Shown: positions 49,698 through 52,769 of the stretch, piece by piece
How positions within the stretch are numbered: the first letter of the stretch is position 1
Layout: the number at the start of each line of letters is the position of its first letter
Assembly: GCF_013167455.1 (NCBI RefSeq)
Contig: NZ_CP038328.1
Strand: one strand, 5' to 3'
DNA length: 64,000 nt
DNA from: Escherichia coli O157:H7
GTDB taxonomy: Bacteria > Pseudomonadota > Gammaproteobacteria > Enterobacterales > Enterobacteriaceae
The notes under the pieces: generated by a model
What the model saw: only the letters and a program-made list of their open reading frames with translations
Database searches by the model: none
Told to the model about the DNA's origin: nothing
Position numbers and translations under genes: made by a program

Positions 49698-50240
49698 TTA
49701 GCGCATAAAAGATAAACGGCAGGAGAGATACCCCTGCCGTTTTTTATTTATCCGGTGCGCCGTAAAACCCCGTCCTTCAGGGCGGGGATATAAGGCGCGG
49801 TTTTCCACCTGACCAGGTGTTTGCTGTTGTTCAATGTATTGGCGGATGACGGATATTGGCGCACCTCCGCAGCTACTGGCAAAATAGCCAGGACTCCACA
49901 AAACGCCTTTGTAGTAATACCTGACTGCAATATCTGGTCGATCTCGTCGCAGTAACCTACCCGATACGCCTTTGAGGCTGTTTACCAGACTGGATATCGC
50001 CAGTTTGGGAGGATAGTTAGTTAACAAATGGACGTGATCTGGTTCGCCATCCATTTCAACCAGTTCAGCTTCAAAATCAGCACATACATTTGAAAAGTAA
50101 GTGCGTAGTTTTTCTGTCGCGTCATAGTCAAAAATCTGACGTCGGTATCTGGTGACAAAGAACAGATGAACATGCATCAGGAAAACACAATGCCTTCCCC
50201 GTCGGATATCGGTTTCTTTATTCATAGACCAAAGTATCAT
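49698..50240 (-). CDS. tnpA: IS200/IS605-family Y1 (HUH) transposase TnpA, with unusual C-terminal extension
   Basis: ORF contains DIRRGRHCVFLMHVHLFFVTRYRRQIF...DHVHLL (HuH motif)...SPGYFASSCGG...IRQYIEQQQ; ORF continues ~40 codons beyond the usual end, through the gltX terminator. Start may be ATG 50225 (MNKETD...). Confidence 0.75.
   Translation of the reverse strand: MILWSMNKETDIRRGRHCVFLMHVHLFFVTRYRRQIFDYDATEKLRTYFSNVCADFEAELVEMDGEPDHVHLLTNYPPKLAISSLVNSLKGVSGRLLRRDRPDIAVRYYYKGVLWSPGYFASSCGGAPISVIRQYIEQQQTPGQVENRALYPRPEGRGFTAHRINKKRQGYLSCRLSFMR
49718..49747 (+). terminator. gltX rho-independent terminator
   Basis: CGGCAGG-AGAGATACC-CCTGCCG followed by TTTTTT, 20 nt after gltX stop. Confidence 0.75.
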
Positions 50241-50247
50241 TTGGCCT

Positions 50248-50583
50248 GTGAAACGACTACAGGCATTTAAATTCCAGTTAAGACCAGGTGGTCAACAGGA
50301 GCGTGAAATGAGGCGCTTCGCAGGCGCATGTCGTTTCGTTTTCAATCGTGCTCTGGCGCTTCAGAATGAGAATCATGAGGCCGGTAATAAATACATCCCT
50401 TACGGGAAAATGGCTTCCTGGCTGGTTGAGTGGAAAAACGCCACTGAAACGCAATGGCTTAAAGATGCCCCGTCACAGCCATTGCAACAGTCACTGAAAG
50501 AGCTTGAGCGGGCTTACAAAAACTTCTTCCGGAAGCGGGCTGCTTTTCCCCGATTCAAAAAGCGGGGACAGAATGATGCATTC
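50248..50583 (+). pseudogene. tnpB: tnpB (RNA-guided nuclease of IS200/IS605 family), N-terminal fragment interrupted by IS629
   Basis: GTG-start ORF (M)KRLQAFKFQLRPGGQQEREMRRFAGACRFVFNRALA..., typical TnpB N-terminus; terminates at the first triplet (TGA) of the IS629 left end. Confidence 0.8.
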
Positions 50584-50637
50584 TGAACCGCCCCGGGAAT
50601 CCTGGAGACTAAACTCCCTGAGAAAGAGGTAAACAGG

Positions 50638-50964
50638 ATGACTAAAAATACACGTTTTTCCCCCGAGGTCCGTCAACGAGCAGTTCGTATGGTTCTGGAA
50701 AGTCAGGGCGAATATGACTCACAATGGGCGGCAATTTGTTCCATTGCCCCAAAGATTGGCTGTACACCAGAGACTCTGCGTGTGTGGGTTCGTCAGCATG
50801 AGCGGGATACCGGGAGTGGTGATGGTGGACTCACCACCGCTGAACGTCAGCGTCTGAAAGAGCTGGAACGTGAAAATCGTGAACTGCGCCGCAGTAACGA
50901 TATCCTTCGCCAGGCTTCCGCTTATTTTGCGAAGGCGGAGTTCGACCGCCTCTGGAAAAAATAA
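50638..50964 (+). CDS. IS629 OrfA (HTH / leucine-zipper transposase N-terminal protein)
   Basis: 108-aa [60 protein letters not shown]... Confidence 0.9.
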
Positions 50965-51851
50965 TGCCGCTGCTGGATAAGCTGCGTGAGCAGTACGGGG
51001 TCGGACCGGTATGCAGTGAACTGCATATTGCCCCGTCAACGTATTACCACTGTCAGCAACAGCGACATCATCCTGATAAACGCAGTGCCCGTGCTCAGCG
51101 CGATGACTGGCTGAAGAGAGAGATACAGCGCGTATACGATGAAAATCATCAGGTGTACGGTGTGCGTAAAGTCTGGCGCCAGTTGTTACGCGAAGGTATC
51201 AGGGTGGCCAGATGTACAGTGGCGCGCCTCATGGCGGTTATGGGACTTGCCGGTGTTCTCCGGGGTAAAAAGGTCCGTACTACCGTCAGCCGGAAAGCCG
51301 TTTCCGCAGGCGACCGCGTAAACCGTCAGTTCGTGGCAGAACGTCCTGACCAGCTGTGGGTGGCTGATTTTACTTACGTCAGCACATGGCAGGGCTTCGT
51401 CTATGTGGCGTTCATCATTGATGTGTTTGCCGGATGTATCGTGGGGTGGCGAGTCTCATCGTCTATGGAAACGACATTCGTGCTGGATGCACTGGAGCAG
51501 GCGTTGTGGGCCCGTCGGCCGTCCGGCACAGTCCATCACAGTGATAAAGGTTCTCAGTATATATCACTGGCCTATACGGAGCGACTAAAAGAAGCAAAAC
51601 TGCTGGCATCAACAGGGAGTACAGGTGACTCGTATGACAACGCGATGGCGGAGAGCATCAATGGTCTTTACAAAGCGGAGGTAATACACCGTAAGAGCTG
51701 GAAAAACCGTGCAGAAGTGGAACTGGCCACACTCACGTGGGTGGACTGGTATAACAATCGACGATTGCTGGGAAGGCTGGGTCATATCCCTCCGGCAGAA
51801 GCAGAAAAAGCTTATTATGCTTCCATCAGAAACGATGATCTGGCAGCCTGA
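50964..51851 (+). CDS. IS629 OrfB (DDE integrase-type catalytic domain), expressed as OrfAB by -1 frameshift
   Basis: 295-aa ORF in -1 frame relative to orfA with DDE-region sequence (WVADFTYV...HSDKGSQY...NAMAESINGLYKAE); A-rich slippery stretch GGAAAAAATAATG at the overlap. Confidence 0.9.
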   Translation: MPLLDKLREQYGVGPVCSELHIAPSTYYHCQQQRHHPDKRSARAQRDDWLKREIQRVYDENHQVYGVRKVWRQLLREGIRVARCTVARLMAVMGLAGVLRGKKVRTTVSRKAVSAGDRVNRQFVAERPDQLWVADFTYVSTWQGFVYVAFIIDVFAGCIVGWRVSSSMETTFVLDALEQALWARRPSGTVHHSDKGSQYISLAYTERLKEAKLLASTGSTGDSYDNAMAESINGLYKAEVIHRKSWKNRAEVELATLTWVDWYNNRRLLGRLGHIPPAEAEKAYYASIRNDDLAA

Positions 51852-51896
51852 GTTCACAGATAAAACACTCTCCAGGAAAACCGGGGCGGTTCATTC

Positions 51897-52769
51897 CGCT
51901 ACCCGCAGGGCGTTAAGCTCGATCAGGAAAACAGCCGTATTTTTCTGCCGAAACTTGGCTGGATGCGCTACCTGAACAGCCGTCAGGTCACGGGTGTTGT
52001 GAAAAATGTCACTGTCAGCCAGTCCTGCGGTAAGTGGTACATCAGTATTCAGACAGAAAGTGAAGTATCAACTCCGGTTCACCCTTCAGCATCAATGGTC
52101 GGACTGGATGCTGGCGTGGCTAAACTCGCCACGCTGTCAGATGGCACAGTCTTTGAGCCTGTAAACAGTTTTCAGAAAAACCAGAAGAAGTTGGCGAGAC
52201 TTCAGCGACAGTTAAGCCGCAAGGTCAAATTCAGCAATAACTGGCAGAAGCAGAAACGCAAAATACAGCGACTGCATTCCTGTACCGCAAATATCCGCAG
52301 GGACTACCTTCACAAAGTCACAACGACCGTCAGCAAAAACCACGCAATGATAGTCATTGAGGATTTGAAGGTCAGCAACATGTCAAAGTCAGCAGCGGGT
52401 ACGGTCAGCCAGCCGGGGCGCAATGTCCGGGCAAAATCAGGTTTAAACCGTTCGATACTGGATCAGGGCTGGTATGAAATGCGCCGCCAGCTTGAGTACA
52501 AGCAGCTCTGGCGTGGCGGTCAGGTACTGGCTGTTCCGCCAGCGTACACAAGCCAGCGTTGCGCGTGCTGTGGTCATACAGCGAAAGAAAACCGCCTGTC
52601 ACAAAGTAAATTCAGATGCCAGGTATGTGGATATACAGCGAACGCCGATGTAAACGGCGCTCGTAACATTTTAGCGGCGGGGCACGCCGTTCTTGCCTGT
52701 GGAGAGATGGTGCAGTCAGGCCGCTCGTTGAAGCAGGAACCCACCGAAATGATTCAGGCGACAGCCTGA
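51897..52769 (+). pseudogene. tnpB: tnpB C-terminal fragment (RuvC-like nuclease and zinc-finger portion)
   Basis: In frame with N-terminal fragment once IS629 plus one TTC copy are removed (about 402 aa reconstructed); contains GLDAG (RuvC-I Asp), IVIEDLKV (RuvC-II Glu), CACCGH...[18 protein letters not shown] (Zn finger and RuvC-III). Confidence 0.8.

Follow-up and report, generated by a model that had tools for sequence, protein, structure and literature searches.

In an intact IS629-group insertion sequence of Escherichia coli O157:H7, the principal -1 frameshift that joins orfA to orfB very probably takes place at a U-run, stimulated by the ALIL (apical loop-internal loop) pseudoknot that begins just downstream, and OrfAB is made there, whereas the conspicuous A-run at the end of orfA would be a secondary site at most. 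The element lies in a stretch of 64,000 nucleotides (assembly GCF_013167455.1, contig NZ_CP038328.1), which is referred to below as the window. An initial annotation of this DNA had assigned the shift to an A-rich heptamer; it was right about the kind of event, programmed -1 ribosomal frameshifting, and wrong about the motif, as it is the U-run at 50925-50929 that is conserved and associated with structure. For annotation, this means that the OrfAB junction of IS629-group elements belongs at the U-run before the ALIL and not at the A-run.

The element and its genes are arranged as follows.

50584..51893, + strand: complete IS629-group (IS3 family) insertion sequence of 1310 bp, delimited by its inverted repeats.
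50584..50608, + strand: left inverted repeat (IRL), TGAACCGCCCCGGGAATCCTGGAGA, a 25-nt arm that is 88% complementary to 51869-51893.
51869..51893, + strand: right inverted repeat (IRR), ...CCGGGGCGGTTCA, a 25-nt arm pairing with IRL.
50581..50583 (left copy) and 51894-51896 (right copy), no strand: target-site duplication TTC in the flanking sequence.
50638..50964, + strand: orfA, 108 aa, a helix-turn-helix (HTH) DNA-binding protein (Pfam HTH_Tnp_1, E 1.4e-12), with its UAA at 50962-50964.
50964..51851, + strand: orfB, 295 aa from its ATG, with HTH_21 and rve DDE catalytic domains (Pfam rve 1.8e-25, HTH_21 5.3e-18).

The termini, TGAACC...GGTTCA, are imperfect inverted repeats ending in 5'-TG...CA-3', and the length lies within the 1.2-1.5 kb of the IS3 family. 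The other traits of the family are present as well, namely two overlapping reading frames with orfB at -1, an HTH protein encoded by orfA and an rve DDE domain encoded by orfB. Joined in the -1 frame, the two reading frames give a 404-aa protein that matches the NCBIfam profile NF033516 ('IS3 family transposase') from end to end (profile positions 1-369 of 369; 369.2 bits, cutoff 160) and carries the DDE triad as D244, D303 and E339 within the motifs WVADFTY, HHSDKGSQY and AMAESING. The view that the element is coding-intact was borne out, since no frameshift or premature stop occurs within it, OrfA (108 aa), OrfB (295 aa) and the fusion (404 aa) are all full length, and the alignment to a copy labelled IS1203 by PGAP is gapless. 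Only one copy of the element is present within the window, and a consensus promoter scan found no sigma-70-like promoter in it (0.9 expected).

The identification as an IS629-group member of the IS3 family also held. The element DNA is 100% identical across 1310 bp to copies in many O157:H7 genomes, with 17-26 places per record among the matches listed; published O157:H7 genomes contain 22-25 IS629 copies each, in three subtypes that are 4-5% apart (Rump et al. 2011, PMC3271280), and IS1203 and IS3411 are listed as IS629 isoforms (PMC3271280). Compared with the IS1203-labelled copy, the window copy shows 95.3% identity (61 substitutions over 1310 bp) and, judged by its sequence, is a different subtype. 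A protein named 'IS3-like element IS629 family transposase' by PGAP is 97% identical over 177 aa to the window protein; the PGAP name for exactly this protein is 'IS3 family transposase' only, and identical copies in RefSeq bear the label 'IS3 family transposase, programmed frameshift' together with an 'AL1L pseudoknot' feature. It should be noted that the assignment to IS629 was made via such proxies (O157:H7 copies called IS629 in the literature, the IS1203-labelled copy and the PGAP names) for the Shigella sonnei reference of ISfinder, isoform level being an identity of about 95% or more. In public collections, the exact protein sequences occur on 851 contigs for OrfA, 190 for OrfB and 229 for the fusion. 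The element is an intact IS629 of the O157:H7 subtype, ordinary and well characterised.

The region in which the two genes overlap contains the following features.

50919..51035, + strand: ALIL frameshift-stimulating pseudoknot, Rfam RF01497 (120.9 bits against a gathering score of 50, E 2e-32, model 1-117 of 117).
50925..50929, + strand: U_UUU.G slip motif, read as UAU UUU GCG (50923-50931) in the 0 frame; probable principal -1 frameshift site, 5 nt 5' of ALIL stem-loop 1 (SL1) and in a conserved column.
50934..50950, + strand: ALIL SL1, GGCGG / loop AGUUCGA / CCGCC; 98.2% of cells paired in 11 sequences.
50940..50945, + strand: apical-loop bases GUUCGA, one strand of the pseudoknot helix, the other being the internal loop UCGGAC (51001-51006); 98.5% of cells paired.
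50951..50995, + strand: linker of 45 nt between SL1 and stem-loop 2 (SL2), within which lie the A-run, the stop of orfA and the start of orfB, in keeping with the ALIL layout.
50956..50966, + strand: the site singled out in the initial annotation, composed of an A6 run (50956-50961), the orfA UAA (50962-50964) and the orfB ATG (50964-50966); termination/re-initiation junction and possible secondary slip site (A_AAA, then stop).
50996..51035, + strand: ALIL SL2 with a 6-nt 5' internal loop, UCGGAC; folds alone at -19.4 kcal/mol (z = -3.09) and shows covariation.

Coordinates and translations confirm that orfA ends and orfB begins within CTGGAAAAAATAATGCC (50952..50968), where the orfA-frame codons are CTC TGG AAA AAA TAA, and that orfB is in the -1 frame (start positions 1 and 0 modulo 3). 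The first ATG of orfB, at 50964, shares a base with the orfA stop (UAAUG). The -1 frame is open from 50898, which gives a 67-nt overlap with orfA, and in this overlap the in-frame Z_ZZN tetramers number just two, U_UUU (50925-50928) and A_AAA (50958-50961). As about 1.4 such tetramers are expected by chance in 22 codons (1/16 per codon, by our own arithmetic), finding a slippery tetramer is not significant in itself, and position and conservation must decide between the two.

Position points to the U-run. The last base of the U_UUU tetramer is 50928 and the first of SL1 is 50934, and no stop interrupts the -1 frame across the motif; the resulting spacing of 5 nt falls inside the 4-10 nt past the motif at which stimulators are placed according to a rule drawn from 271 IS3-family members (PMC4066793). 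The ALIL is the only Rfam family found in the element, and the model match opens at CGCUUAUUUUGC. In ALIL-bearing insertion sequences, SL2 is positioned at 44-104 nt (review, Atkins et al., PMC5009743); this arrangement has been described in IS3411 and at least 27 other elements, and stimulation of -1 frameshifting by it has been reported for IS3411 (PMC5009743). It is on the basis of the IS3411 arrangement that we place the shift site 5' of SL1, at UAU UUU GCG. The U-run comprises the tetramer U_UUU only, and the preceding codon, UAU, re-pairs poorly; thus, the intrinsic shift frequency is probably low. The initial annotation had suggested looking for a stem-loop or pseudoknot downstream of the A-run: such a structure is indeed present in the form of the ALIL, but it belongs to the upstream U-run, about 30 bases 5' of the A-run.

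It is very unlikely that the A-run at 50956-50961 is the principal programmed slippery site producing OrfAB, as in IS911, IS150 and IS1, even though A-rich motifs make up ~74.5% of the frameshift motifs in the IS1 and IS3 families (PMC4066793), A_AAA is slip-compatible in the orfA frame and the adjacent stop codon can favour P-site slippage. In the orfA frame the run reads G_AAA_AAA followed by UAA, which is not the canonical X_XXY_YYZ heptamer, and its slip-compatible part is confined to the tetramer A_AAA at 50958-50961. The hierarchy measured in E. coli reporters with a pseudoknot stimulator (A_AAG >> U_UUC > U_UUU > C_CCU = C_CCC > A_AAA; PMC4066793) makes A_AAA the weakest of the six effective tetramers, below U_UUU. 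Moreover, the A-run lies 3' of SL1, within the ALIL linker and 34 nt 5' of SL2, a position at which the ALIL should be unable to stimulate it. A dedicated stimulator for the A-run was sought by folding 50962-50998 and 50962-51035, but no convincing one emerged; these folds gave just a weak interrupted hairpin (50965-50992, about 4 nt past the A-run motif; -9.3 kcal/mol, z = 0.08) that was indistinguishable from shuffles, 98 of 200 being as good.

Conservation points in the same direction as position. The element was compared with 14 relatives from plasmids, with protein identities from 96% to about 50%, which originate from E. coli, Xanthomonas, two Pseudomonas species, Acetobacter, Sinorhizobium, Microvirga, Burkholderia, Acinetobacter, Rhodococcus and Enterobacter. 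All 14 contain an ALIL match, which exceeds the gathering score in 13. Eleven sequences were aligned, namely the window copy, the IS1203-labelled E. coli copy and nine relatives from outside E. coli; the other E. coli copies (L003-L005) and a truncated Enterobacter copy were omitted. All 11 have a U-rich slip motif in the same alignment columns, lying in an open -1 frame; it takes the forms UAUUUUG, UUUUUUG, UAUUUCG, UCUUUCG and UUUUUUC, the last forming a perfect heptamer, U_UUU_UUC. By contrast, no A-run is present in the relatives from outside E. coli, where its columns read CAAACG, CAAGCC, GAAGUC, CAGGCU, CAAAUA and similar. Among the sequences compared, A6 is confined to the E. coli IS629/IS1203 copies, and the relatives from Pseudomonas, Xanthomonas, Microvirga, Sinorhizobium, Acetobacter, Burkholderia, Acinetobacter and Rhodococcus have non-slippery sequence in its place. 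This is a further argument against the A-run as the principal site, given that the ALIL and the U-run persist in relatives beyond the E. coli clade in which the A-run is missing; the claim that the run is a programmed slippery heptamer is supported neither by its reading in frame nor by its conservation, which does not extend outside that clade. One related copy, L003, has A5 in place of A6.

The pairing of the ALIL is likewise maintained in the alignment of 11 sequences: 93.5% of cells in the ALIL pairs are paired, compared with 32-46% after a shift of the partner by 1-3 columns, and seven pairs show double-sided changes. In the pseudoknot helix, the second pair (23-87) is CG in seven sequences, UA in three, including the window copy, and AU in one, which are compensatory changes. 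The near-invariance of SL1 is partly confounded with coding constraint, as SL1 encodes conserved residues in both frames. A natural orfAB fusion appeared to exist in two plasmid matches (H51 and H52), each of which was a single tblastn piece; this candidate was rejected, as their windows are laid out like the others, with orfA and orfB in different frames.

Transcriptional slippage in bacterial insertion sequences is generally efficient only on A/T runs with a length of some 9 or more, so that A6 is too short, and a conserved ALIL pseudoknot favours a translational mechanism. It is thus scarcely credible that RNA polymerase fuses orfA and orfB by adding an A within the run, notwithstanding that homopolymer runs can cause transcriptional realignment (PMC4066793) and that the A5 of L003 shows the run to be indel-prone at the DNA level.

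A different question is whether the A-run acts beside the U-run. Chen and Hu (JBC, 2006) are said to have found that TTTTG and AAAAT are both functional -1 signals in lacZ reporters, the product of TTTTG being the transposase; T4G and A4T reportedly act as -1 signals giving OrfAB' and OrfAB. Given this reported result, the A-run should not be dismissed as non-functional. That both sites are used, yielding two fusions that differ in 11 residues (98-108), one serving as transposase and the other as helper, is a reading that we hold only tentatively, though it has a real prospect of being correct. The two Z_ZZN tetramers of the overlap are precisely these two, the A6 run is retained in the four intact E. 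coli copies examined, and the title of Chen & Hu 2006 (JBC 281:21617), as given in the reference list of PMC5771124, supports dual use and speaks against a run devoid of any recoding role. However, the A-run is without a convincing stimulator and is unconserved in the wider ALIL-bearing group, so any role that it plays should be specific to the clade.

It is also possible, if somewhat less likely than not, that the A-run has no recoding role and merely supplies the Lys-Lys at the C terminus of OrfA; what functions at 50956-50966 would then be the UAAUG, coupling initiation of OrfB to termination of OrfA. A stop/start overlap (UAAUG, AUGA, UUGA or GUGA) is found at this position in nine of the 10 aligned relatives despite the variable bases that precede it, Burkholderia having just CUGA, and IS629 OrfB has been reported to lower the transposition frequency, which implies that OrfB is made (PMC5771124). 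Nonetheless, an uninterrupted A6 is expected by chance only about 0.02 times per 67-nt overlap (our own estimate), and A6 is retained across IS629 subtypes that are 4-5% apart, both of which weigh against a run that serves for coding alone. The site is best read as a junction coupling the orfA stop to the orfB start, with a secondary slip site in addition at most.

In the O157 subtype, a G to A change at 50963 turns the orfA UGA into UAA and, in the orfB frame, AUG into AUA, which removes the first of two tandem AUGs. One might speculate that A6 followed by a stop is, in the IS629 clade, a genuinely used second recoding site that is independent of the ALIL, and that the change at 50963 could re-tune the ratios of OrfA, OrfB, OrfAB and the second fusion, thereby adding to the activity of this subtype, which is unusually high in O157:H7; we consider this unlikely.

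For the principal shift at the U-run, we infer the use of the sites by ribosomes, its proportions and the coupling of OrfB along the following lines. Expression would most likely proceed as in IS3411, an isoform, and in other IS3-family elements that bear an ALIL. Ribosomes engaged on orfA would arrive at UAU UUU GCG (50923-50931) with the ALIL beginning 5 nt further on; the pseudoknot, with SL1, SL2 and the 6-bp helix between apical and internal loop, would hinder translocation, and some ribosomes would slip by -1 on U_UUU. Those that slip would proceed in the orfB frame and complete the 404-aa OrfAB DDE transposase, and those that do not would end OrfA at the UAA (50962-50964), where the overlapping AUG (UAAUG) may allow coupled re-initiation and thus the synthesis of OrfB alone. 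While the A-run is being decoded, SL1 would already be unwound, and the pseudoknot should therefore be unable to act there. The A-run would be at most a weak secondary slip site assisted by the stop codon, which could yield another fusion, joined as ...LWKK|IMPLL....

Both junctions are found in public annotation. For exactly this DNA, OrfAB is annotated with the U-run junction on 229 contigs and with the A-run junction (...LWKK|IMPLL...) on two; among PGAP proteins, the A-run junction is that of P0003 (2 contigs) and of P0005, a variant (99 contigs). These annotations could be counted in favour of the A-run as the principal site. However, since both junctions occur, the choice made by PGAP was rejected as evidence of mechanism: the counts reflect the rules of the pipeline and not biology. 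Two OrfAB junctions for identical DNA are thus currently in circulation in public protein databases.

Among known systems, the closest is IS629 of E. coli O157:H7 itself (also IS1203v; isoform group IS629/IS1203/IS3411), which shares the length of 1310 bp, the 25-nt inverted repeats, the 3-bp target-site duplication and the 0/-1 arrangement of orfA and orfB. The element does not differ from it, and the insertion site alone is new. The ALIL pseudoknot of IS3411 (RF01497; Mazauric et al. 2008) is alike in that SL1 closely follows the slip motif, SL2 comes after another 45 nt and the apical and internal loops pair over 6 bp. Compared with the consensus of the ALIL family, the window copy has U-A for C-G (compensatory) and U-G for U-A (wobble) at two of the loop-loop pairs, and pairing is kept. 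IS911, IS150 and IS3 resemble the element in their HTH protein OrfA, in an OrfAB DDE transposase made by programmed -1 frameshifting and in a downstream RNA stimulator. Their frameshifts take place at A-rich motifs (A_AAA_AAG or A_AAG) served by a stem-loop or pseudoknot, whereas in the window element the conserved motif is U-rich, the stimulator is of the ALIL type and the A-run precedes no convincing stimulator. All of these findings are already known biology, and the understanding of the IS3 family is unchanged by them.

The one novelty, the insertion site, lies within another mobile-element gene, which is split as follows.

50248..50583 (5' part) and 51894..52769 (3' part), + strand: InsQ/TnpB gene (IS200/IS605 family), interrupted by the insertion sequence; Pfam HTH_OrfB_IS605, and OrfB_IS605 and Cas12f1-like_TNB, on the two halves.

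The interrupted gene adjoins gltX and a remnant of a Y1 tnpA. Removal in silico of the insertion sequence and one TTC restores an InsQ/TnpB reading frame of 402 aa, and the 800-bp empty site reconstructed in this way is 100% identical in many O157 genomes; in O157 strain FDAARGOS_293, it contains an intact gene annotated as 'RNA-guided endonuclease InsQ/TnpB', beside gltX. The filled site was searched for with two probes. An 80-nt probe for the left junction was covered to 80% or more in none of 5,426 complete E. coli genomes, and a 2.1-kb probe was matched only piecewise, in several segments and at about 96% identity. Taken together, the empty site that is identical in other O157 genomes and the filled junction that is missing from complete E. 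coli genomes show that the insertion is recent; on these genome comparisons, it is a strain-specific transposition event. The strain-specific insertion, the perfect target-site duplication and the known empty site also agree with the earlier description of the element as potentially active, and they indicate that the IS629 family is evidently active in this lineage. The 5.7 kb located 5' of the insertion is 100% identical to chromosomes of the O157:H7 lineage, and the insertion into insQ/tnpB next to gltX provides a usable IS-typing marker for the source strain.

The intact IS629 copy in the window (50584..51893, + strand) splits an InsQ/TnpB gene, which encodes an RNA-guided endonuclease and is carried by an IS200/IS605-family element directly adjoining gltX; it is an IS within an IS. 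The parts of the disrupted element are as follows:

49698..50240, - strand: IS200-like Y1 transposase ORF, 180 aa
50248..50583: InsQ/TnpB, the portion on one side of the IS629 copy
51894..52769: InsQ/TnpB, the portion on the other side

A search of 5,426 complete E. coli genomes found the junction between IS629 and InsQ/TnpB in none of them, and the empty site, i.e., InsQ/TnpB without IS629, is common in O157. The last base of the Y1 transposase ORF lies exactly one base past the gltX stop codon (49697). Because its tnpA counterpart in another O157 genome is labelled by PGAP as an incomplete pseudogene with a missing C-terminus, the IS200/IS605 element may already have been a truncated relic before IS629 arrived.

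Within the region where orfA and orfB overlap, the window subtype differs at position 50963 from the IS1203-labelled E. coli copy, a relative with 95.3% identity (AAAAAAUAAUGCC in the window vs. AAAAAAUGAUGCC). The orfA stop codon is UAA rather than UGA. In the orfB frame, where the other copy has two AUGs in tandem, the first is replaced by AUA, and the OrfAB fusion protein reads EKIMPLL instead of EKMMPLL. This change might shift the efficiency of termination or re-initiation.

The A-run preceding this position is A6 in the window (50956-50961). In a related copy on E. coli plasmid pP63 (LC620535.1, L003:464-579), it is A5, orfB is no longer in the -1 relationship, and the copy is annotated as three fragments. 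The occurrence of A5 in place of A6 shows that this run is prone to indels in the DNA itself. Conversely, an A7 variant would yield a constitutively fused orfAB.

In two other plasmid copies (L004 and L005, matches H51 and H52), the 404-aa fusion was aligned by tblastn in a single piece at 75-78% identity. Despite this, both show the usual arrangement of two frames in the frameshift window; one possibility is that both copies carry indels elsewhere. A truncated relative on an Enterobacter cloacae plasmid (L014:568-678) lacks orfA and the region of the U-run slip motif and stem-loop 1 (SL1), and it scored 41 bits against the ALIL pseudoknot model (Rfam RF01497), which is under the gathering score. 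RNAI, a plasmid-replication antisense RNA, lies nearby (1584-1685).

An identical IS629 copy is present in E. coli O157:H7 TR01 (NZ_CP033605.1, L001:1-2312). Near it is a gene annotated as 'TOTE conflict system archaeo-eukaryotic primase domain-containing protein'. IS629 is acted on by an IS-excision enhancer (IEE), which has been described as PrimPol-based (bioRxiv 10.1101/2023.06.07.543989).
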